Source: a virus (lineage: Duplodnaviria > Heunggongvirae > Uroviricota > Caudoviricetes). Taken from it: a stretch of DNA of 49,389 nt. A program made the position numbers and the translations under genes. Positions 13,964-48,409 of this stretch are shown here, in pieces (position 1 is the stretch's first letter; each line of letters begins with the position of its first letter). The notes under the pieces are model-generated. The model did no database searches, was not told where the DNA came from, and worked only from the letters and a program-made list of their open reading frames with translations. Where the stretch lies: the IMG/VR virus record IMGVR_UViG_2851966386_000003, positions 1-49,389 of that record. The stretch is one strand, 5' to 3'.

Positions 13964-13982
13964 TCTGTGTGAGGTGCTAACC

Positions 13983-14216
13983 ATGAAAGTTGAAGTCACA
14001 ATTGATAAACATAAAAAACTCCCTGATGGTGCCATACCTGCGCTTGAGCAAGAATTGTTGCGCCGCTTGTCCCAGTCTTATGATGACTGCAAATTAACCA
14101 TTCGATGCACAAGCAACGATGGCCTTAGCGTTTTGGGCGGCGCTGATGGCGATAAAAAGCGCGTTGAGCAAATTCTGCAAGAGACATGGGAAAGCGCAGA
14201 CGACTGGTTTTATTAG
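13983..14216 (+). CDS. dinI: DinI-family protein
   Basis: 77-aa product matches E. coli DinI along its length (MKVEVTIDK...LPDGAIPALEQELLRR...EQILQETWESADDWF); GAGGTG SD; real start is internal Met of ORF 13824..14216. Confidence 0.8.
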   Translation: MKVEVTIDKHKKLPDGAIPALEQELLRRLSQSYDDCKLTIRCTSNDGLSVLGGADGDKKRVEQILQETWESADDWFY

Positions 14217-15434: not shown

Positions 15435-15731
15435 ATGGCGAATCTTCGCAAAGCGGCCCGAGGCCGCGAATGCACAGTACGTATTCCTGGGTACTGCAAT
15501 GGCAATCCCGAAACCAGTGTGCTGGCGCATTACCGTCTGGCGGGAACGTGCGGCACAGGATGCAAGCCTGACGATACTCAGGGCGCTATTGCCTGCAGTG
15601 CTTGCCACGATCTCATTGATGGCAGAAAGAGAACCACCGATTACACCCGCGACGAACTGCGCCTGATGCATGCCGAAGGCGTGCTCAGAACTTTGGCTAT
15701 ATGGAAACAAGAGGGGTTACTGAAAGCATGA
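15435..15731 (+). CDS. YbcO-like Cys-rich putative nuclease
   Basis: Product resembles, from memory, DLP12 YbcO family (ANLRKAARGRECTVRIPGYCNGNPETSVLAH...ACSACHDLIDG); directly upstream of Q-like gene. Confidence 0.55.
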   Translation: MANLRKAARGRECTVRIPGYCNGNPETSVLAHYRLAGTCGTGCKPDDTQGAIACSACHDLIDGRKRTTDYTRDELRLMHAEGVLRTLAIWKQEGLLKA

Positions 15732-16543
15732 AACTCGAAGCATCCTTAAAACATTTCAGCCCTCAGGGTATGCACATCAGCGACGATGTGAGAAGCACAT
15801 CACCTGATCGCCTCAACGGTACGGATGTTATGGCTGGTATTGGGGTGACAAGCAGCAGGGCAAGGTTCGGACTGGCAGCGTTCTTTGGAAAGACTGGCAT
15901 CAGCAAGACTGATGAGCAGTTGGCCGTCCAGGCGCTAGCACGGTATGCGATTGAAACCGCACCGAAGAACGTACGCAAAACCGCGGGTAAAGAGCTGGGG
16001 CACTGCTGCCTGATTTTGGCGAAGTTTGCTTTTGCGGAGTATTCCCGTTCAGCTGAAACAACGGGAGCCTGCAGGGTATGTAATGGCACCGGACAGATTG
16101 AAACCACTACCACAGAACGCAAAGTTTCTAATCCGTGGGGCAAAGCACCATATTGGGCTAAAAAATCTCGTGCTGTCTGTCCTTCCGACTGGGATAAGTG
16201 GACTGAAGTCACAGCCGCCTTCAGCGCTAAGTGTGAAGCCTGTGACGGTAAGGGGAAAATAAATGCTCGCTGTCGCTGTGGTGGTTCTGGCCGGGTTCTG
16301 GACCGCAAAGCGACAAAAGAGCAGGGAGCACCAGTATATAAAATCTGTGAACGCTGTTCGGGGAATGGCTTTTCAACGATGCCGTCTACTGCTGCTTATA
16401 AAGCGATTCTGACGCTTATCCCAGACCTGCACATCAGAACATGGACACGCAACTGGAAACCTTTCTGCGATGCGCTGGTGGACCTGTGCTGGAAGGAAGA
16501 GGAGAGGGCAGATAAAGAGTTTCAACGAGCAACAGCTGATTGA
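15728..16543 (+). CDS. Putative late antiterminator Q, with four CxxCxGxG zinc-finger repeats
   Basis: Position upstream of pR'/tR'-like elements and lysis genes; repeats CRVCNGTGQ, CEACDGKGK, CRCGGSGR, CERCSGNGF; ATGA-coupled start. Confidence 0.55.
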   Translation: MKLEASLKHFSPQGMHISDDVRSTSPDRLNGTDVMAGIGVTSSRARFGLAAFFGKTGISKTDEQLAVQALARYAIETAPKNVRKTAGKELGHCCLILAKFAFAEYSRSAETTGACRVCNGTGQIETTTTERKVSNPWGKAPYWAKKSRAVCPSDWDKWTEVTAAFSAKCEACDGKGKINARCRCGGSGRVLDRKATKEQGAPVYKICERCSGNGFSTMPSTAAYKAILTLIPDLHIRTWTRNWKPFCDALVDLCWKEEERADKEFQRATAD

Positions 16544-16583
16544 GTAAATGGGCACATTATTTTGCATTTTAAGCGCACAATGC

Positions 16584-16613
16584 TTGATTTTGTCCGAAGT
16601 TGTCGTGTATATT
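16584..16613 (+). promoter_or_regulatory. Candidate late promoter (pR'-like)
   Basis: TTGATT -N18- TATATT just downstream of Q-like gene and ~45 nt upstream of a terminator. Confidence 0.45.
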
Positions 16614-16654
16614 TTAAATCGTGGAATAAAACGCCTGAACGAAAACATTCATAT

Positions 16655-16688
16655 AAACCCTGCTACTGCAGGGTTTTGTGTTTTTGAA
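16655..16688 (+). terminator. Rho-independent terminator (tR'-like)
   Basis: aaaccctgc tact gcagggttt followed by tgtgttttt. Confidence 0.65.
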
Positions 16689-16795
16689 AACAAATGCCTG
16701 AAATCGGTTATAAAGTGTGATCTGAATCAAAATGCCATGCGTCAAACTTAAGGAATATTAAGGAACTGTAAATATTCTTTATAAGTGATGGTCTT

Positions 16796-17422
16796 ATGGC
16801 GTTAAAAGATATTTTTGTGCGAACCGAACCTCACAGACGGCATTATGGTGTTGCATTGTTTATCGGGCTTATTTCTGGGGTGGTTTCAGCATTTGTTAAA
16901 TGGGGTGCAGAAGTACCATTACCACCGCGTAGTCCTGTCGATATGTTTACCAGTGCCTGTGGACCAGAGTCATTAATTCGAGCTGCCGGGCAGATTGATT
17001 GTTCCAGAAACTTCCTTAACCCTCCTTATATTTTTCTGCGTGATTGGTTAGGGCTGGCCGATCCAAATGCGGCTGTCTATACCTTTGCCGGACATGTGTT
17101 TAACTGGGTAGGTGTAACGCATATCATATTCTCCATCGTGTTTGCGGTTGGGTATTGTGTAGTTGCCGAGGTGTTTCCAAAAATCAAGCTGTGGCAGGGT
17201 TTACTTGCAGGTGCACTCGCACAACTGTTTGTCCATATGATTTCGTTTCCGCTTATGGGCCTAACCCCACCGTTGATTGAGCTTCCATGGTATGAAAACG
17301 TTTCTGAAATATTTGGTCACCTGGTGTGGTTCTGGTCAATTGAGATAATTCGCCGGGATCTGAGAAACAGAATTACGCACGAACCGGATGCTGAAGTTTC
17401 TCTGAATTCAGCATTCAGATAA
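16796..17422 (+). CDS. yagU: YagU-family inner membrane protein (DUF1440)
   Basis: 208-aa product near-identical over long stretches to E. coli YagU (from memory). Confidence 0.85.
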
Positions 17423-17440
17423 TCTAAGCTGCGAAGTCTG

Positions 17441-17468
17441 AAACCCGCATAAAATGCGGGTTTTTTAT
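17441..17468 (+). terminator. Rho-independent terminator after yagU
   Basis: aaacccgcat aaa atgcggg followed by ttttttat. Confidence 0.7.
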
Positions 17469-17548
17469 GCCTGTGATTAGTCGCTCTTCGATAGCAATGT
17501 ATGCAGAGTGTATTGACGCTAGCTATGTTTACAGCATAACGTATTGAT

Positions 17549-17657
17549 GTGGTGAATCCCCCTATGCGGAGGGGCGACCAGTCAGTTACAGAAACCTGTA
17601 AATGCAGCGCGGCCATGCCGACTGGGGCATGCTCACCGGGAGGCACCCGGCACCACA
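17549..17657 (+). repeat. Copy 1 of ~108-nt structured repeat element (candidate ncRNA or recombination site)
   Basis: gtggtgaatccccctatgcggaggggcgaccagtc...gactggggca...ccgggaggcacccggcaccaca; shares conserved 5' and 3' arms with copy at 20245..20351. Confidence 0.6.
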
Positions 17658-17816
17658 CTGCCACATAACATATTTAAGATTTATGGAAGGTTTACTTCTG
17701 CGGTTGCCCTTCTATGTTTATAGAACGTAACGGCAAAAGTGAATGCTTCCTGGTAAATCGGTAGCTCGGACTATTAGGAGTGGCTTCGTTTCGTTACTAC
17801 CTAGAATGCCTACTTT

Positions 17817-17844
17817 CTGCCCGCCTTCAGGCGGGCTTTTTTAC
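17817..17844 (+). terminator. Rho-independent terminator
   Basis: gcccgcc ttca ggcgggc followed by tttttt. Confidence 0.7.
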
Positions 17845-18020
17845 GCCATCAATAGGGCGCTTCAAGAGAAAAGGTAAATATCAGTTGAAGGCTGCGCTTT
17901 GCGTGGCCTTTCTTATTTCAGGCTCACAGAAATCATCATCGATACAGCGCGTTGTTAAATCAGCCCGATGGGCCTGACCCCTTTATTCACACAGCACCCC
18001 GTTAACCCGGAGGTGAACCT

Positions 18021-18332
18021 ATGGCAAAGCATATGCAAGACAAAGAGAGCATGGCCGGAATCACCTGGCTGGCTCTGCTGATCATTGCTGGTTGGGGCGG
18101 CCTTGTCCGATTCCTGATGGATGTGAAGCAGGGCAAAGCAAAATGGAGCTGGATAAATGCCTTTGCGCAGATAGTGGTCTCTGCTTTCACTGGCGTCATT
18201 GGTGGGCTAATCAGCATTGAAAGTGGGCTGAGTATTTACATGATACTGGCCACTGCCGGTGTCAGTGGTGCTATGGGATCCGTAGCGCTTACGTATTTCT
18301 GGGAACGAATTACCGGAGTGAAAGCACAATGA
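18021..18332 (+). CDS. Holin
   Basis: 103-aa product with TM segments and charged C-terminus, possible dual start (MAKHM); GGAGGTG SD; directly upstream of endolysin with ATGA overlap. Confidence 0.7.
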   Translation: MAKHMQDKESMAGITWLALLIIAGWGGLVRFLMDVKQGKAKWSWINAFAQIVVSAFTGVIGGLISIESGLSIYMILATAGVSGAMGSVALTYFWERITGVKAQ

Positions 18333-18868
18333 CAGCAGACCAGATTATTGAAGGCATCCTGGGAAAAGAAGGTGGGTATGTCGATCACCCTTCTGACAAA
18401 GGCGGACCAACCCGCTGGGGCATCACGCAGACCACAGCTCGAGCACATGGTTACACCGGTGATATGAGAAACCTGCCCAGGGAAACAGCAAAGCAAATTC
18501 TGCTCAGCGATTACTGGACCGGCCCCCGATTCGATCAGGTGGCAAGTTTATCTACGTTACTGGCAGATGAGCTTTGCGACACTGGTGTGAACATGGGGCC
18601 AAATATTGCCAGTAAGTTTTTCCAGCGCTGGCTCACTGCCCTTAACATGCGCGGGAAGTTGTATCCCGATCTGATCCCGGATGGAGCCATTGGCCCCCGA
18701 ACCATCACCGCGCTTAAGGGATATCTTTCTGCCCGCGGGAAAGAGGGGGAACAGGTTCTGTTGCGTGCGCTGAACTGCAGCCAGGGTGCCAGATACCTCG
18801 AACTGGCGGAGGGCCGCGAAGCCAACGAGGATTTTCTCTACGGCTGGGTTAAGGAGCGTGTCCTGTGA
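18329..18868 (+). CDS. Endolysin, GH108 N-acetylmuramidase with peptidoglycan-binding domain
   Basis: N-terminal GH108 signature (EGGYVDHPSDKGGPTRWGIT). Confidence 0.85.
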   Translation: MTADQIIEGILGKEGGYVDHPSDKGGPTRWGITQTTARAHGYTGDMRNLPRETAKQILLSDYWTGPRFDQVASLSTLLADELCDTGVNMGPNIASKFFQRWLTALNMRGKLYPDLIPDGAIGPRTITALKGYLSARGKEGEQVLLRALNCSQGARYLELAEGREANEDFLYGWVKERVL

Positions 18869-19212
18869 AGATGATCATTTTCGCTTTGCTCGTGCTGGTG
18901 GCTGTGCTCGTTCTGTTACTGCTGCGCAAATATACCCGGCTGGAGTTCGTTGCCCATGCCAGCCTGCTGCTGAAAACGTGGTCTGTAAAGCTGGGGGCTA
19001 TCGGTGCGCTGGTTGGCATGTGGGTGCAGTCGTTCCCGGATGCTGCGCTGCACGCCTGGGCGATGCTGCCGCCGGACATTAAAAACATTTTGCCTTCAAA
19101 CATCGTGGCACTGATTAGCCCTGCGCTGGTGGTGCTGGCGGTGCTTTCGCAATACGTACGCCAGCCAGCATTGAAAGCTAAGGCCGACAAACTGAAGGAG
19201 CCGCAGCAATGA
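18865..19212 (+). CDS. Lysis-associated membrane protein (possible antiholin/LysA-like)
   Basis: 115-aa product with two hydrophobic helices; lies between endolysin and spanins. Confidence 0.45.
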   Translation: MKMIIFALLVLVAVLVLLLLRKYTRLEFVAHASLLLKTWSVKLGAIGALVGMWVQSFPDAALHAWAMLPPDIKNILPSNIVALISPALVVLAVLSQYVRQPALKAKADKLKEPQQ

Positions 19213-19484
19213 GCTTAGAAATTATTGCTGGTCTGGTGGTCGTCATCCTGGGCGCTATCGCTGGCGCGTTCGGCATAGGTCATGCTCGCGGGACCAGTAA
19301 GGCGGAAGCCAAAGCCGAGCAGCAGCGTACCGAAGAGAACGCCACCGCTACCATCGCTGCGGCAGAACGTAAGGCGGAAGTTGTGAAAGGGGCCAGTGAT
19401 GTACAGGAAGACGTTAAGCGTATGGGCGATGACGATGTTGATCGCGAGCTGCGCGAAAAGTTTACCCGCCCCGGTAGTCGTTGA
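19209..19484 (+). CDS. i-spanin (Rz-like)
   Basis: N-terminal TM helix then charged, coiled-coil-like region; contains overlapping out-of-frame lipoprotein ORF. Confidence 0.55.
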   Translation: MSLEIIAGLVVVILGAIAGAFGIGHARGTSKAEAKAEQQRTEENATATIAAAERKAEVVKGASDVQEDVKRMGDDDVDRELREKFTRPGSR

Positions 19485-19991: not shown

Positions 19992-20244
19992 GTGAGTTAA
20001 CCCTCCTAGGGACCATGGATATTATGGTTCGCATGAGGGGTAGTGTGGGATTTAAGTGAGAAAATTCCTAACTGGAATTTTTTCTTAATTTGAAACCTGA
20101 TATGAAACTTTATTGTTGGTTTTGTAATGATTCAATATGAAATGATTAATTATTGTCTGCCAGGATATACAGTTTTCCGAAAGAGGTGTTTTTACTGGTT
20201 ACATCGGATTGACTATGCACTTATCGCATAGCTAATGTAGATGC

Positions 20245-20351
20245 GTGGTGAATCCCCCTGTGCGGTGGGGCGACCAGCCAGGTTTTCTCTTTGAGCACAC
20301 ACGCAGGTCTGTTGGCTGGGGCAGACTTACCGGGAGGCACCCGGCACCACA
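20245..20351 (+). repeat. Copy 2 of ~108-nt structured repeat element
   Basis: gtggtgaatccccctgtgcggtggggcgaccagcc...ggctggggca...ccgggaggcacccggcaccaca; possible hairpin terminator at 20371-20397. Confidence 0.6.
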
Positions 20352-20544
20352 ACATACTGCATAACCCCATAAAGGCCTTCCATTACGGTAGGCCTTTTCT
20401 CTTCTGGTTGTATCTAATACTGTGGGCAGGTCAGCTGGCTTATGCAGGACAGATTATTTTTTCTTATTGAATGCCGCTTCTGGTGTGCTTATATTCTACC
20501 TAAAAATGGGTAGGTGTGTTGTGATTAGAAAATGCTATGCAAGA

Positions 20545-20904
20545 ATGTCTGACCCAGCATCAAATGACAAGCTGACACTGGAAATGCTTGTAACTGACGG
20601 TGGGCGTAAGATTTTTATCTGGGATTTTGATAAAGGGGTGGCAATTTTCTCTGAGGGTATAACAGGTAAGCAGTCTAAATACATAGTGCAAGGTGAAAAG
20701 CATGCAGGGCATATCAATCTTATCAGAGATAATACGATTGAGCGCACTATTTATGGGGTTAAGGAGCTCACCTGTGGAAATGGTGATTCCGGTAAATCCT
20801 CTCCTGTGTTTTGCTCATTGTGCGAGGGGCAGATACTCATAATCGAATGCCAAAAGGCTTTTATAAGAAAACCATTAAGGCTTGATGAACTCACCTTTGA
20901 ATAG
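20545..20904 (+). CDS. Hypothetical protein, AT-rich moron (start uncertain)
   Basis: ORF 20422..20904; weak SD; AT-rich. Confidence 0.3.
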   Translation: MSDPASNDKLTLEMLVTDGGRKIFIWDFDKGVAIFSEGITGKQSKYIVQGEKHAGHINLIRDNTIERTIYGVKELTCGNGDSGKSSPVFCSLCEGQILIIECQKAFIRKPLRLDELTFE

Positions 20905-42246: not shown

Positions 42247-42275
42247 TACCCCATAACAACCCCTAATTAACTCTT

Positions 42276-42301
42276 TTCGCTCAAACCCTCGTTTGGGCGA
42301 A
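42276..42301. promoter_or_regulatory. Candidate invertase recombination site (left), 26-bp imperfect palindrome
   Basis: TTCGCTCAAACC-CT-CGTTTGGGCGAA; inverted copy at 47771-47796; within ~58-bp inverted repeat 42271-42329. Confidence 0.6.
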
Positions 42302-42323
42302 GCCTCTTTTTGGAGCAAAAAAC

Positions 42324-44075
42324 ATGGCCTTTAACCCGGAGCTGGGGAGCACGTCTCCCGCTGTGTTGCTCGATAACGCCGAGCGTCTGGATAAGCTGGT
42401 CAATGGGCCCGAGCTGACTGAGCCGGATCGCGCTGGCGTTGAGCTGGATACCTGGCGCGGAATGATGGCGAAAAATGATCAGGTTACTGAAGACGCCCGC
42501 AAAAGTATTACTGCGCTGGGATTACCCTATTCGACATTATCGGAAGCACAGGCAGCCGTGAACAACGGTCAGATACCGGTGGACTCAGTTTGCTATGTCC
42601 GCAGCACTGACGACGCAGTAGCAATTGAGTATTTAAACGAAGCCGGAACACTGGTACCCACCGGGAATGTGTTGCCCTCAGAAGAAACCATCGACAAAAA
42701 ACTCAATCAGCGACTCGTCCCGGGTCAATACCTGTCGACATGGTTTCCTGTTTTTTTCGATCGAAACAGAAATGTTTACGCGTGGTTTGATGGTGGACGT
42801 TGGGACGTTGCTGATTTTGGCGCTAATGCACGAACAATCATTGAATCAGTACCTAACGCCTGGGCACAAAAATTTCTCCCCCAGGGAGACTACTCTCCAA
42901 ATTACTTTCCGTTTGTTCACGACAGAAATGGAAATGTTTATGCATGGTTCCATAACGGTATGTATGACGGTTATGGATTTGGGCCAAATATTGAAAAATA
43001 TATCTTAAATCTTGTCGGTGGGGCTTCTGCACAATCAGACAGTTCATTTATTGAAGGAGACCAGTATAAGTTCAACTTTAAAAAAGGTCGTGTTTTCAGT
43101 GGGCAGGCAGCGAGTGTTAACACTGCATTTTTTGGTGACTCATGGAACGAAAAAAACACGATCCCACAATCATTAATTAATGTTCTGGGAGGAATGTTTA
43201 AAGACCCGGCCTGGATAAGTTGCTCTAACCGCGCTGATGGTGTCATGGCTGGCATATCGCCTGTCGTTGCAACAAACTTTACGAAATATGATGGAGGGAG
43301 TAATAACACGAACCCGCCACCGTATGGATGCGGACCTGATGGGAATGGGTATTACAATAACAATACTGTTGGGTCTCTGGCCTGGACCGGTATTACAGCA
43401 ACCGACCTTTCAGTTTTCTATTATGATGGTTCCGGTTCGTTTACCATCACAATTGATGGCGGCACACCTGTAACAGTCAATGGTGCGAACACCGGAGCAG
43501 CTAAAAAGCACGATATCAGTGGGCTATCCGCAACAGCCCATAGCGTAACGATTCAGAGCCTGGGAAGTGGGGTTGTATCCATTTTGGGGATGTATGGAAA
43601 GAACAGCGCTGTGCGTTCCGGCGTAACGGTTTCAAGGATGGGGAATGGCGGGGCTATAGGAAGTGATTTCTTTAATTTTTCTGAGTGGATCAAACCTGTT
43701 GCACAGTATCTCGATATTGATTTGTTGTTCGTCATCCTTGGTACAAACGATTTCAGGTTAAGCAAGGGGACGACGCAATATAGAAATGGACTGGTGGAAA
43801 TAATTACAAAGTTTCGGGAAGCTACGCCCGGCATCTGTATTTGCCTGGTGTCACCGGGTCACTGTAATGCAACTGGTACTCCAGCTCTGTCAGAGTACGA
43901 TGCTGTCATGCGTGAACTGGCTGTTGAGTATAACGTCAACTTCATTAGTGGATATCAGCTATTCCCGAAAACGTACGATAACAGCAATGGGGCCTGGGAG
44001 GATGGTTTGCACCTGAGCTCTCTTGGCGCATATATATTGACAAATAAAATCAAAAAAGAATTTTTTCAGGAGTAA
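42324..44075 (+). CDS. Tail fibre/spike protein 1 with C-terminal SGNH/GDSL hydrolase domain
   Basis: N-terminal ~110 aa paralogous to fibre 2; SGNH blocks FFGDSW, ILGTNDF, DGLHLS. Confidence 0.7.
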   Translation: MAFNPELGSTSPAVLLDNAERLDKLVNGPELTEPDRAGVELDTWRGMMAKNDQVTEDARKSITALGLPYSTLSEAQAAVNNGQIPVDSVCYVRSTDDAVAIEYLNEAGTLVPTGNVLPSEETIDKKLNQRLVPGQYLSTWFPVFFDRNRNVYAWFDGGRWDVADFGANARTIIESVPNAWAQKFLPQGDYSPNYFPFVHDRNGNVYAWFHNGMYDGYGFGPNIEKYILNLVGGASAQSDSSFIEGDQYKFNFKKGRVFSGQAASVNTAFFGDSWNEKNTIPQSLINVLGGMFKDPAWISCSNRADGVMAGISPVVATNFTKYDGGSNNTNPPPYGCGPDGNGYYNNNTVGSLAWTGITATDLSVFYYDGSGSFTITIDGGTPVTVNGANTGAAKKHDISGLSATAHSVTIQSLGSGVVSILGMYGKNSAVRSGVTVSRMGNGGAIGSDFFNFSEWIKPVAQYLDIDLLFVILGTNDFRLSKGTTQYRNGLVEIITKFREATPGICICLVSPGHCNATGTPALSEYDAVMRELAVEYNVNFISGYQLFPKTYDNSNGAWEDGLHLSSLGAYILTNKIKKEFFQE

Positions 44076-44077
44076 TT

Positions 44078-44836
44078 ATGCCTATTACAGCCATTTTACT
44101 TGATATGAACGGTCCCGTCATACCGGGGATGAAAACCCTTGATGACTTTACTATTTCAAACTGGTTCATCGGGCTCCCGGATGTCAGTGCAACACCGTTC
44201 GCTGGTTATTATTTTGGAGAGCCAGCGCCTGATATCACTTATAACTCCTATAACAAAAACGCTCCGGCCGTCATCAATGGTTCTCTGAATAATGCTGACG
44301 GTTATATCTCTGTTAACAATACTGACTTTCTGGATACAAGTCAGAAAGCACCTCTGACGCTGACAATCTGTGGTGTGGCTAAACGGAATGCCGGCGGGGC
44401 CTCGCTGAATGCCCATATGATCGCAGATTTTTCAGGAAGCGGTTCAGCAGCGAGTGGCTTCTCAATTGGCTTCACGAACGGGACCGGGAATCTCTTTTGT
44501 GTAGGCCAGAATAACGGTCAGTCCTCCGCAGGGTATGCCTATGCAGCATTCCCGGCATCAATTGCCGTAGGTGATCTGTTCGCGTTTGCTGCCTCGATAA
44601 CCCAGGGGACAGTAACCATTGATATTTACAACCCGCAGACCGGGGCACTGATATCATCATCAGCCGCTTTCCCTGGTACCCGAGTGGCCGGGACAAATAA
44701 CGTCCTGCTGGGGAGGAAAACTGATAATAACAACGAAACAACGACCAAGTATATCAAGTCGGTTTTGTTGATGGAGGGCGTGCTTACTTCAGCAGAGAAG
44801 GTTTCTGTTTCGCAGTTCTTATTGTCGATGGAATAA
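44078..44836 (+). CDS. Fibre-associated protein co-transcribed with fibre 1
   Basis: 252-aa ORF 2 nt after fibre 1 stop; AGGAG SD. Confidence 0.45.
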   Translation: MPITAILLDMNGPVIPGMKTLDDFTISNWFIGLPDVSATPFAGYYFGEPAPDITYNSYNKNAPAVINGSLNNADGYISVNNTDFLDTSQKAPLTLTICGVAKRNAGGASLNAHMIADFSGSGSAASGFSIGFTNGTGNLFCVGQNNGQSSAGYAYAAFPASIAVGDLFAFAASITQGTVTIDIYNPQTGALISSSAAFPGTRVAGTNNVLLGRKTDNNNETTTKYIKSVLLMEGVLTSAEKVSVSQFLLSME

Positions 44837-44875
44837 AAAATCCCCTGAGATAAAACACTCAGGGGATTTATTTCA
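44837..44875. terminator. Bidirectional terminator between convergent fibre operons
   Basis: tcccctgag ataaaaca ctcagggga flanked by A-run upstream and T-run downstream. Confidence 0.65.
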
Positions 44876-44880
44876 TGACA

Positions 44881-45201
44881 TCATTGAAGTATACATTTTT
44901 CTCGTACAGAGCTCTTTATGGTGATTTGTTGAGAAAATTCTGGCATTTCCATAATCTGTATTTCAGCCTGCTCTGCCCATGATTTTGATGATGAGGTATC
45001 CAGCGAAATAGGGTAATCACCTACGATGACCTTTGCATTGTCATCATAACGCACTGACAATGTTGCTTTTACCTGACCAGTGTCATCCTGACGGACGCTT
45101 TCAACTGCATAAATTAAATCTATTTCAACATCCTTGTCGCAGAGATATCCACCGAGATAATGAATCTGGACTGTTTTTAATACTGACAATTTAAATGACA
45201 T
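44881..45201 (-). CDS. Fibre-associated protein co-transcribed with fibre 2
   Basis: 106-aa ORF starting 10 nt after fibre 2 stop; AAGGAA SD. Confidence 0.45.
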   Translation of the reverse strand: MSFKLSVLKTVQIHYLGGYLCDKDVEIDLIYAVESVRQDDTGQVKATLSVRYDDNAKVIVGDYPISLDTSSSKSWAEQAEIQIMEMPEFSQQITIKSSVREKCILQ

Positions 45202-45210
45202 AATGATTCC

Positions 45211-47748
45211 TTACGCAGGTAAGTAGTATTTTTCGCCGTAAATAAGCTTGCACAGACTGAATGCCGCTGCATCTGCGCCAGCCTTGTAACTGACGGTATA
45301 GCCGAGGTCATTCGGGTGGTTGAAATTAGGTGAGTTGAAAAGGGCTGACCATCCGTGTACCTCCACTCCCTGTTTGAACCAGGGGATTTCAGCTTCCAGT
45401 ACAAATGCGGATTTCTTCCGTGCTGTGGCTCGCGCCATGCTGTTATAGAGGCCAAACCGCACATCACCAACAACTTCAATACCACTCCCTGACCAGTCGG
45501 ACTCCACAAATGACCGTGACGGCGGCGGATCGAGTACTTCCTCAATAATGCTGTCCAGATTAATTTGCTGAATAGTGGTATTGATCAGGTCAGAGACCGG
45601 AATATTTTCTGCCACAGTAATAGTGTTACGATCAGCAGAAATGCCGGTAATTGTGTAGTCGCCTGCATTGCTGCCACCGACCCGAAGGATATGGCCTGGA
45701 CGGAGAATCTGGCCGCCCCAGCTGGTCGCTGCATTTCCTGTATCATATGAGAAAGCAGTACTAGAGATAGTATTACTGGCTGAATCAAACGTGAAGTTGC
45801 CCGTAACATTGAAAGTCCTCACAGGCCAGACAACGTTAAGGTTTCCCAGGGTAATGTTTTTGACGGTATTATGTTCAACATTGTTATGCGGCGTGGTACA
45901 AACAATCACGATCGCACCTTTTGCCGTGCACATATCAATAATGTTCTCAAGCTCTGCCTGCTGACGAGGGAAGGTCCTTCCACGATTAAAGTTCCCCACC
46001 GGAGCATCATTCATCCCCCCTACAATCAGAACGAAATCAGGCCAGTCGTCAGGGTTTTCACTGGTGAAATACGGTGAGTTTTGTAGCTGTGCTGGAAACT
46101 GCTGTAATGCCTGGCCAATTACGCACTGATTGTCGTCGATAAACTCAAATTCCCCATACGGTGATAAATATTTTTTCATCGCCTCAATAAATAGCGTATT
46201 CGGCGCAAAAGGCGCCCCCGGAACCCCGCCACCTGTTGAGCCTGCAGCTAATCCTACCGACGAACCCGTTGAAGTAAAAATAAGCCGTTTTTTTGTGACT
46301 GTTCTTACGCCATTACTAAACGAAATTTTACCAAATGGCGAAGTGTCGGCCGCTGTACCATCACCAATGAGTTTTTTGCGCAATTTAATATAGGGGTCAG
46401 TGACAGCACCCTGCAGAGTGGTGACATCGCTTTTGAGGTTCAGAATGTCTGTGGTCGGATCGCCTGAGAGCAAAAGTTTGAAATTGTTAACGGGAGAACC
46501 ACGATACTGAACCGTAACAGGTTTCGCTGCCTGCAGTTCGCCGCCCGTAAGCGCTGTGTTCGCCCCCTTCAGCAGATTGCGCGTTACCGAATTTCCGTAC
46601 AGGTCAGTTATAACAAGCGTCGTTGCGCCGGTATTAGCCACCACGGGTTCAAATGTTATCTGAGTACCGTCACCAAGCAGCCCGGGTATGGTTACGGACA
46701 CAGCGTTAGGGCTTGAGGAGTCACTTGTTACCGTCCCTTTGGTATACGCATTGAGAACCCGTGCCCTGTCACCTGGGTAGGTCAGCAAACGAAAATCACT
46801 GGCGGCCGCATTATACATGAGCAGATACGGGTATCCTGAGACAAGGTCTCCGACAGCCAGAGCAGTACCGCCAGCCTGTTTAATCGTACGTGCCGTCCAA
46901 CCGTTCAGCGACAGCGTCGGTGTTCTCGTGGTATTGGTTGCGCTGGGTGTAAAAACAAACGCGCGACCAGTGACCAGAACCTGTGATGATGTGGTGTTGG
47001 CAGTGTTTCCTGTATACGCGTCCGATGTCATTGTTACTGCCGAAACAATCGCAACGGAGTTCAACTCAACATTCAGCAGGCGTGCATTCAGCTCTGCCGC
47101 CACTGGGCCGGATGCGACAAGGACGAAATTGTTGGCGGTTCCTGTGCGGAACTCCATCAGTACCGGTTGATTCAGCAAAAGCTCATTACCAGCGAGCGCT
47201 GCGAAATTTTGTTTCTGGATTGCGCGAGTAACGGTATTCCCCTTCGCGTCTGTCACGGTCACACTGACCGCGCCGGTATTCAGGATGGGGGAAAGGAAAT
47301 AAATAAGACTGCTATCAACCAGCAGACCGGGAATAGTGATAGCGATAGTATTTGCCGCATTGCTGCTGACTGCCGTTGCAGCCTGATAGCCAGTTGGTAA
47401 CGCAGACAGCATTTTTCTCCCAGTGGCAACCAGCATACCGCCAACATTCATATACTCAATAGCCAGATATGCGTCATCAGGGCTACGCACATAGGTGCTG
47501 CTGCCTTCTGGAATATTCGCGATATCCGCCTGCGCCGCCGCCAGCGTCTGATACTGCTTACTGAGCGGGATCAGGTTCTGCCTGACCTCATCGTTTTTCG
47601 CCATCATCTGGCGCCAGGTATCGAGCGGTTCACCGCCGCGGTCGTTAACCGTACCTGCCGGACCGTTAACCAGCTCGTCAGCGCGCTTGACGTTATCCAG
47701 GAAAATTTCAGGCGTCGTCGTTCCCAAAGGCGGGTTAAGTTCGGCCAT
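45211..47748 (-). CDS. Tail fibre/spike protein 2 (alternative fibre)
   Basis: N-terminal ~110 aa paralogous to fibre 1 (MAELNPPLGTTTPEIFLDNVKRADELVNGP... vs MAFNPELGSTSPAVLLDNAERLDKLVNGP...); unrelated C-terminus; 5' UTR is inverted copy of fibre 1 5' UTR. Confidence 0.65.
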   Translation of the reverse strand: MAELNPPLGTTTPEIFLDNVKRADELVNGPAGTVNDRGGEPLDTWRQMMAKNDEVRQNLIPLSKQYQTLAAAQADIANIPEGSSTYVRSPDDAYLAIEYMNVGGMLVATGRKMLSALPTGYQAATAVSSNAANTIAITIPGLLVDSSLIYFLSPILNTGAVSVTVTDAKGNTVTRAIQKQNFAALAGNELLLNQPVLMEFRTGTANNFVLVASGPVAAELNARLLNVELNSVAIVSAVTMTSDAYTGNTANTTSSQVLVTGRAFVFTPSATNTTRTPTLSLNGWTARTIKQAGGTALAVGDLVSGYPYLLMYNAAASDFRLLTYPGDRARVLNAYTKGTVTSDSSSPNAVSVTIPGLLGDGTQITFEPVVANTGATTLVITDLYGNSVTRNLLKGANTALTGGELQAAKPVTVQYRGSPVNNFKLLLSGDPTTDILNLKSDVTTLQGAVTDPYIKLRKKLIGDGTAADTSPFGKISFSNGVRTVTKKRLIFTSTGSSVGLAAGSTGGGVPGAPFAPNTLFIEAMKKYLSPYGEFEFIDDNQCVIGQALQQFPAQLQNSPYFTSENPDDWPDFVLIVGGMNDAPVGNFNRGRTFPRQQAELENIIDMCTAKGAIVIVCTTPHNNVEHNTVKNITLGNLNVVWPVRTFNVTGNFTFDSASNTISSTAFSYDTGNAATSWGGQILRPGHILRVGGSNAGDYTITGISADRNTITVAENIPVSDLINTTIQQINLDSIIEEVLDPPPSRSFVESDWSGSGIEVVGDVRFGLYNSMARATARKKSAFVLEAEIPWFKQGVEVHGWSALFNSPNFNHPNDLGYTVSYKAGADAAAFSLCKLIYGEKYYLPA

Positions 47749-47770
47749 GTTTTTTGCTCCAAAAAGAGGC

Positions 47771-47796
47771 TTCGCGCAAACGAGGGTTTGAGCGAA
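47771..47796. promoter_or_regulatory. Candidate invertase recombination site (right), inverted copy
   Basis: ttcgcgcaaacg-ag-ggtttgagcgaa, reverse complement of left site with one substitution. Confidence 0.6.
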
Positions 47797-47839
47797 AGAG
47801 CGGAGCTTTTTACAATCAGTTATTTCAAGGAGTTAGATA

Positions 47840-48409
47840 GTGCTGATTGGCTATGCGAGGGTATCAACCGGGGATCAAAACCTCGACTTACAGAAAAATG
47901 CGCTGATCCGCGCAGAATGTGAGCTGGTTTTTGAGGATATGGCCAGCGGGAAAAATGCCCAGCGGCCAGGGTTAAAGCGCGCCTTACGCAGGCTTAAGCC
48001 CGGCGATGTGCTGGTGGTCTGGAAACTTGACCGACTGGGCCGAAGCGTGCGTGACCTGATTACACTCGTGTCGGAGCTGCAGGCGCGCGGGGTGAATTTC
48101 CGCAGCCTGACTGACAGCATCGACACCTCGACGCCTGCGGGACGTTTCTTCTTCCACGTCATGAGCGCCCTGGCGGAAATGGAAAGAGAGCTGATTGTCG
48201 AGCGTACACGAGCGGGTTTAGCCGCAGCGAGGGAGCAGGGGAGAGTCGGCGGCCGCCGCCGGGTAATGACTGAAGTAGTGGTGGAGCGGTGCCGCAGAAT
48301 GCTGGAGAACGGCGCTACCCGGCACCAGATCGCAGATGTGATAGGGGTGGGAGTGAAGACGATTTACAAATATTTGCCAGTACAATACAGCGATAAAAAA
48401 TCCCCTTGA
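47840..48409 (+). CDS. Serine DNA invertase (Gin/Hin/Pin/Cin family)
   Basis: Product aligns with Gin from memory (MLIGYARVSTGDQN...LVVWKLDRLGRS...FRSLTDSIDTSTPAGRFFFHVMSALAEMERELIVERT); C-terminal HTH. Confidence 0.85.
   Translation: MLIGYARVSTGDQNLDLQKNALIRAECELVFEDMASGKNAQRPGLKRALRRLKPGDVLVVWKLDRLGRSVRDLITLVSELQARGVNFRSLTDSIDTSTPAGRFFFHVMSALAEMERELIVERTRAGLAAAREQGRVGGRRRVMTEVVVERCRRMLENGATRHQIADVIGVGVKTIYKYLPVQYSDKKSP

Follow-up and report, generated by a model that had tools for sequence, protein, structure and literature searches.

The yagU gene in the variable slot between a lambda-type Q/pR'/tR' module and the lysis genes of a Klebsiella prophage

Closest described systems and the setting of the prophage

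A slot for accessory genes between the late antiterminator gene Q and the lysis genes is a textbook principle. In phage lambda the Q-binding element sits in the spacer of the late promoter pR', and the leader transcribed from this promoter has a length of 194 nt. The accessory genes called morons include bor and lom of lambda, gp15 of HK97, and, from DLP12 and PA-2, the porin genes nmpC/lc that occupy the Q-S slot. The moron concept has been laid out previously (PMC3594210), and lambdoid morons share several features with the gene described here. They are accessory units between genes that are adjacent in relatives, they have a distinct base composition and a terminator of their own, and the yagU product, an envelope protein, is likewise likely to alter the phenotype of the host. 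In contrast to these morons, the promoter of yagU is only presumed, and its product is not specific to phages, as a chromosomal gene that is nearly identical to yagU is widespread.

The Shiga toxin phages 933W and Sp5 carry stx1/stx2 in the same slot, i.e., behind a late promoter that is constitutive and the terminator belonging to it, and upstream of the holin and endolysin genes. In Stx-phage lysogens pR' is always on but terminated, and a short RNA results (PMC7547250); a short terminated RNA is also predicted here. A further likeness is that the slot is shared, by an sRNA gene in the present case and by tRNAs in a related E. coli prophage. However, expression and release of the stx2 product depend on Q read-through and on lysis, whereas YagU is a membrane protein and can help only a living cell. 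In addition, yagU comes with a conserved upstream region and a terminator of its own, and copies outside of the slot or in antisense orientation exist as well.

The chromosomal yagU gene of E. coli is strongly induced by acid, and survival at pH 2 is reduced about 3-fold in a yagU::kan mutant (PMC1626474), which is a modest effect. The link between YagU and acid resistance that an earlier note on this DNA had named is, therefore, found in the literature for E. coli. Moreover, OmpR binds upstream of the E. coli gene (PMC5217608). The literature search yielded no paper on a phage-borne yagU and neither transcript nor phenotype data on the copy from Klebsiella.

The stretch analyzed here, called the window, has a length of 49,389 nucleotides, and this 49-kb sequence represents a Klebsiella prophage of the lambdoid type that is almost complete. 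The left end of the prophage encodes an integrase, RecT, RecE, and a CI-like repressor. The nin region contains DinI (13980-14216, PF06183, E 4e-26) upstream of DUF1367, YbcO, and Q, and it is followed by the lysis genes, large open reading frames, and the tail-fiber genes, in that order. The closest deposited phages are the Klebsiella phages ST13-OXA48phi12.4, with 95% identity across the region, and ST405-OXA48phi1.3; in both of them the counterpart of yagU is labelled only as a hypothetical DUF1440 protein. Close to the right end, two inverted repeats of 55 nt (42275-42329 and 47743-47797, 98% complementary) overlap the starts of two opposed tail-fiber genes with GDSL/SGNH-like domains (42324-44075 on the plus strand and 45211-47748 on the minus strand). 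A resolvase/invertase gene (47840-48409) is located just outside of the repeat-bounded segment, and to judge from this arrangement positions 42275-48409 probably hold an invertible host-range segment.

The lambda-type Q module and the slot behind it

The gene upstream of the slot, which the earlier note had described as Q-like, encodes a late antiterminator of the lambda Q family with 271 amino acids (15728-16543, plus strand; Pfam PF03589, E 2.6e-49), and its start can be extended to position 15701. The protein can be aligned with the structures of lambda Q (PDB 7UBM/7UBN, E 4e-43) at residues 1-124 and 180-265. It differs from lambda Q by an insertion of about 55 amino acids, which contains a second CxxC pair and has a weak match to the DnaJ zinc finger. 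The arrangement corresponds to that of lambda in having a homologous Q, a promoter with a conserved spacer directly after Q, and a terminator about 35 nt into the transcript.

The candidate for pR' is the element TTGATT-N18-TATATT (16584-16613, plus strand). As matches to the consensus its hexamers are not above chance level, because six such sites were found in 5 kb and 5.6 are expected. Nevertheless, the candidate is supported by comparison, because the element tracks Q across its relatives. It is present downstream of the Q stop codon in 80 IMG/VR loci and in one E. coli prophage, with Q proteins that are 73-100% identical to that of the window, and among these it was found in 34 of the 34 loci with a Q of 73-88% identity. 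In an E. coli locus with a Q gene that is 72% identical at the DNA level (L003), the first 27 bases of the promoter are exactly the same, that is the -35 hexamer, the 18-nt spacer, and the first part of the -10 hexamer, and only the last bases of the -10 hexamer deviate (TATGCT for TATATT). A subclade of Q proteins with 77-80% identity has the spacer TTGCATAAAGTTGTCC instead of TTGTCCGAAGTTGTCG. Such a co-occurrence of a spacer variant with a Q subclade is expected of a spacer that contains the Q-binding element, and in lambda this element is indeed located there. The spacer contains the direct repeat TTGTCC-N4-TTGTCG (16590-16605), the two halves of which are one helical turn apart and which changes together with the Q subclade. 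From its sequence, this repeat may be a two-site Q-binding element.

A terminator, seen by the earlier note about 45 nt downstream of the promoter, is indeed present. The putative tR' (16655-16685, plus strand) starts about 42 nt after the -10 hexamer and consists of a stem (16655-16676) and a T-tract that extends to about position 16685; it has a predicted folding energy of -22.4 kcal/mol (z -4.3). The hairpin of nine base pairs is retained in all of 20 diverse relatives (20/20), with changes to G-U pairs and one compensatory change. Together, promoter and terminator would yield a short leader transcript of about 65 nt (16620-16685, plus strand), the start of which is a prediction, and it would thus be considerably shorter than the leader of lambda. 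In the initially transcribed region, where lambda-type modules have a -10-like element that induces pausing, the motif TGG(A/G)ATA is found about 9-15 nt after the -10 hexamer in most variants and represents a semi-conserved 5' part of the leader among the Q relatives. By its position, the terminated RNA is the counterpart of the 6S RNA of lambda and of the sRNA StxS of Stx phages. An open reading frame of 67 codons (16548-16751) spans the promoter and tR', and a shorter reading frame at this place has been annotated as a hypothetical protein in MK422450. Most likely it is not a gene, and it looks conserved because the regulatory DNA beneath it is conserved.

The alignability of the Q relatives ends right after the T-tract of tR', where the identity to the window is 0.59, compared to 0.83 in the promoter. 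Therefore, the cargo slot begins at about position 16686. In other Q relatives it contains a gene for a DUF4747 protein, tRNAs, or unknown open reading frames on either strand. One locus (L005) has no cargo gene at all, and behind its tR' come about 180 nt of non-coding sequence, the STnc100 region described below, and the holin gene. The yagU gene of the window is thus inserted between elements that are adjacent in related phages, which is a defining trait of morons. This places yagU in a variable slot behind a lambda-type Q/pR'/tR' module, as had been proposed.

The same proposal listed the lysis cassette next after yagU and its terminator. The cassette does follow, starting at position 18021, but an sRNA gene and two hairpins that had been overlooked lie in between. 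The distance from the yagU terminator to the holin gene is about 550 bp (17468-18020). It contains a gene for an sRNA of the STnc100 family (17518-17721, plus strand; Rfam RF02076, 71.9 bits compared to a gathering score of 47) and, further downstream, two terminator-like hairpins (17819-17836 and 17887-17911, plus strand). The lysis cassette (18021-19484) is composed of the genes for a LydA-type holin (18021-18332), a GH108 endolysin (18329-18868), a DUF7940 protein termed "holin" in PHROGs (18865-19212), and an Rz-like spanin (19209-19484), all on the plus strand.

A second STnc100 copy (20217-20405, 81.5 bits with RF02076) is located downstream of the cassette, so that the two copies bracket the lysis genes. 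Both are preceded by a promoter-like sequence, TTGAC-N17/18-TAA(C/T)GT, which in the case of the first copy is TTGACG-N18-TAACGT. STnc100 has been linked to PasD sRNAs and to Q genes of the PF03589 type (bioRxiv 10.64898/2026.05.13.724894). In two further loci (L222 and L235) an STnc100 copy is found upstream of yagU instead of downstream. STnc100 was the sole accepted family in a permissive Rfam search of positions 16500-18100; matches to rnk, the Leu/Trp leaders, isrK, and RsmY were rejected, as they stayed far below the gathering scores and overlie terminators. The possibility that the late promoter resides in the STnc100 region, with yagU upstream of it, was considered and rejected, because the promoter at 16584-16613 and its terminator track Q. 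It is further disfavored by the occurrence of the STnc100 region behind unrelated types of Q and by its duplication after the lysis genes. Directly downstream of the second copy, between the lysis and the packaging genes, an open reading frame of low GC content was found (20422-20904, 160 amino acids, 41% GC; phrog_27982, a PHROG without assigned function), which has no match in Pfam or PADLOC and is probably a second moron.

The yagU unit and its linkage to Q

The term "YagU-like" that had been used for the gene at positions 16796-17422 (plus strand) turned out to be an understatement. The encoded DUF1440 inner-membrane protein of 208 amino acids matches PF07274 end to end (profile positions 1-135 of 135, E 9.4e-48, 162.1 bits with a cut-off of 34.7 bits), and 183 of 201 residues are identical to E. 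coli YagU (91%), without a gap. The two proteins are of the same length class and share the conserved residues; the genomic context and the upstream region of the E. coli K-12 gene are different. Both proteins fall into one 90%-identity cluster, and because the cluster includes E. coli YagU its 2243 members do not tell how prevalent the phage gene is. In PHROGs the protein belongs to phrog_25162 (E 1e-128), listed there as function unknown, and no NCBIfam model matches it. The N terminus (MALKD...) is typical for a clade comprising Klebsiella, Raoultella, Phytobacter, and Pluralibacter. The GC content of yagU is 45.5% (39.7% at third codon positions), compared to 51-56% (50-70%) for the neighboring genes; for Q, holin, and lysin alone the third-position values are 50-59%.

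An AlphaFold2 model based on an alignment of 41 sequences (mean pLDDT 85, pTM 0.82) contains long helices at residues 17-38, 104-126, 128-153, and 165-194, and hydropathy peaks are found at about residues 24-31, 106-123, and 144-147. YagU is thus predicted to be a polytopic inner-membrane protein with four helices. Both termini are probably cytoplasmic, and the less ordered long loop of residues 40-95, which holds two cysteines, is presumably periplasmic. Among the residues that are invariant or almost so are K35, E39, R45, H109, H147, and E171. The DUF1440 family is small, as 1.8 billion representatives contain 248 clusters of it at 50% identity, and neither the sequence nor the fold search retrieved a solved relative.

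The gene is tightly linked to one allele of Q. The representative of the cluster, which is 99% identical to the YagU of the window, is indexed in thousands of assemblies, and at all of 10 places inspected yagU starts 253 nt after a Q gene of 271 codons and precedes at least four different lysis cassettes. Among the best 80 Q relatives in IMG/VR, a Q with at least 91% identity is followed by yagU at a constant offset, 256 nt from where the Q match ends, with three exceptions (L055, L058, and L061), and no Q with less than 90% identity is accompanied by yagU. When all compared loci are taken together, at least five combinations of holin and endolysin are found downstream of the gene.

The phage copies are also well preserved. 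A set of 59 distinct phage-borne alleles, which took in intact open reading frames only and did not count truncated copies, has at most 41 synonymous and at most five non-synonymous differences from the copy of the window. The dN/dS ratios are 0.02-0.09, with a dS of up to 0.35 within the Q-linked clade. These low values indicate that yagU is under strong purifying selection while it resides on prophages, and the substitution pattern marks the phage gene as a functional one. The dS is higher than 1.2 between copies from different phage lineages, and these lineages appear to have acquired yagU independently.

Among the homologue matches listed, none was a yagU from a chromosome of the K. pneumoniae complex, and the complex may, therefore, be devoid of a chromosomal copy.

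The flanks of yagU are portable. The region between tR' and the start codon (16686-16795, plus strand), with a core at about 16716-16795 (GTGATCTnAATCAAAATG ... AACTTAAGGAAnATTAAGGAACTGTAAAT), is presumed to be the promoter, operator, or 5' leader of yagU itself. About 85-125 nt upstream of the gene are conserved in chromosomal loci without Q and in other prophage loci. The former include the chromosomes of Raoultella lignicola and Klebsiella sp. R390, in which an aldehyde dehydrogenase gene is the neighbor and no Q is nearby. The region is also retained in prophage remnants of K. spallanzanii and Pluralibacter, in a Phytobacter prophage with a Q of only 69% identity, and in phages with a Q82-type Q (PF06323) or with a lambda-type Q that is only 32% identical. 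In one locus (L222) yagU lies behind a Q82-type Q; in another (L236) it is found together with a gene for a universal stress protein (Usp) between Q and holin, antisense to late transcription; and in a third (L234), in which the gene and its flanks resemble a Photobacterium locus, it is part of the nin region and is flanked by DUF1367 and YbcO. The yagU/Usp pair in L236 (2998-4556) represents a two-gene stress cargo.

In addition, yagU has an intrinsic terminator of its own, as had been noted before (17441-17467, plus strand; 11-pair stem and U6, z -3.8). In other contexts the alignment also reveals a hairpin-forming sequence with a T-rich tail downstream of yagU, with differing stems. The portable upstream region, the terminator, and the variety of contexts fit the pattern of an autonomous unit, i.e., of a moron.

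The homology between the window (16671-16700) and the two chromosomal loci of Raoultella lignicola and Klebsiella sp. R390 (about 3876-3900 in L098/L099) begins inside the T-tract of the terminator (GGGTTTTTTGCTTATGAAAC versus GGGTTTTGTGTTTTTGAAAAC). With this start point, these chromosomal yagU copies may have been derived from a phage, or the phage copy from a chromosome.

A consensus scan of positions 16686-16795 found no sigma-70 site, and inspection of the same region by eye revealed no convincing promoter for sigma-70 or sigma-S and no convincing site for CRP, OmpR, or RcsAB. The conserved region may contain an activator-dependent promoter, an operator, a leader, or the site of a regulator. 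A leader hairpin is possible (z -2.3), in a stretch with little sequence diversity. The regions upstream of yagU in E. coli, Citrobacter, and Enterobacter are unrelated to that of the phage, and, therefore, the regulation by OmpR and acid described for E. coli cannot simply be carried over.

Expression of yagU and its meaning for the lysogen

We regard it as fairly probable that yagU is a moron with its own control region, that it is expressed independently of Q in lysogens, and that Q read-through is a by-product of its position. In a lysogen, pR' would be constitutively on and transcription would stop at tR', yielding the RNA of about 65 nt. Transcription of yagU would start from its own conserved upstream region, and the protein would be inserted into the inner membrane and, by homology, contribute to acid survival. 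After induction, Q would bind to the spacer of pR' and render the RNA polymerase terminator-resistant, as in the lambda paradigm. The polymerase would then pass tR', yagU with its terminator, and the STnc100 region and reach the lysis genes, so that the yagU transcript level would also rise late, as a consequence of the position of the gene. It speaks against this reading that no consensus promoter was called and that nearly all yagU copies are co-oriented and directly behind tR', which also fits pure Q-dependence; the modest size of the effect in E. coli, about 3-fold, is a further point against it.

The earlier note had seen yagU as Q-dependent cargo like stx. In its strict form, this would mean that the gene has no promoter of its own, that it is transcribed only via read-through of tR', and that the protein has a role in the lytic cycle, e.g., that it stabilizes the inner membrane or the proton-motive force and thereby keeps holin timing and burst in an acidic environment. 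The distance of 110 nt between tR' and yagU, the orientation that yagU shares with the late genes throughout the Q-linked clade, the gap without a called consensus promoter, and the location near the lysis genes, where yagU stays with one Q allele while lysis cassettes are swapped, are all in agreement with this view. However, the upstream region has been retained also at chromosomal sites without Q nearby, a terminator of its own would be needless for a gene in the middle of an operon, the gene is antisense to late transcription in one phage (L236) and in the nin region of another (L234), and the protein is 91% identical to the product of a host gene that works without any phage. Q-dependence in the sense of stx is, therefore, not well supported, and we consider it unlikely. 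An acid-tolerance benefit to the lysogen, moreover, needs yagU expression without Q. A combined version, which we judge to be quite improbable, is that phage YagU serves both the phage and the host and that the protein made late via Q stabilizes the inner membrane or the proton-motive force, e.g., in acidic niches of the gut, so that holin action and burst stay on schedule. It would explain why yagU remains attached to a single Q/pR' allele, immediately ahead of the lysis region, although the lysis cassettes are exchanged.

Two further explanations were considered. YagU might have been recruited from the host for superinfection exclusion or defense and protect the lysogen against other phages. 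In favor of this, the protein is small and belongs to the inner membrane, its gene occupies a slot in which accessory genes are frequent, and the neighboring cargos of related phages are mostly of unknown function. PADLOC, however, gave only a chance-level match to a restriction-enzyme model (E 0.0025, 14.6 bits), and the sequence is almost unchanged compared to chromosomal YagU across Enterobacterales, Vibrio, and Pasteurellaceae. Together with the strong purifying selection this argues for the ancestral function rather than for a new anti-phage one, and makes a defense role very unlikely. We give the least credence to a neutral passenger, i.e., a host gene that was gained by illegitimate recombination and is carried along by a successful Q module without a selected role. 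The protein identity of 98-100% across the Q-linked clade could, taken alone, mean a recent spread. It is opposed by the up to 41 synonymous versus at most five non-synonymous differences in the 59 alleles, by the finding that none of these alleles is disrupted (0/59, in a collection of intact reading frames only), and by the apparently independent acquisitions by phage lineages with a dS above 1.2. The independently expressed moron is, therefore, the reading that we prefer.

The gene itself can already be found in PHROGs and in phage records of GenBank, although without a name. The novelty is, therefore, limited to three points, namely which gene the cargo is, that it is tightly linked to one Q allele, and that different lambdoid lineages appear to have captured it repeatedly. 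The comparison also defines a lambda-Q-type module with promoter, candidate Q-binding repeats, terminator, and start of the slot, which applies to a large set of prophages from Klebsiella and E. coli. Phage yagU offers a natural presence/absence system for the highly conserved DUF1440 family of membrane proteins. If the K. pneumoniae complex is truly without a chromosomal yagU, a common prophage module would be a route to the YagU function, and in that case the prophage content would matter for acid tolerance and perhaps also for the passage through the gut.
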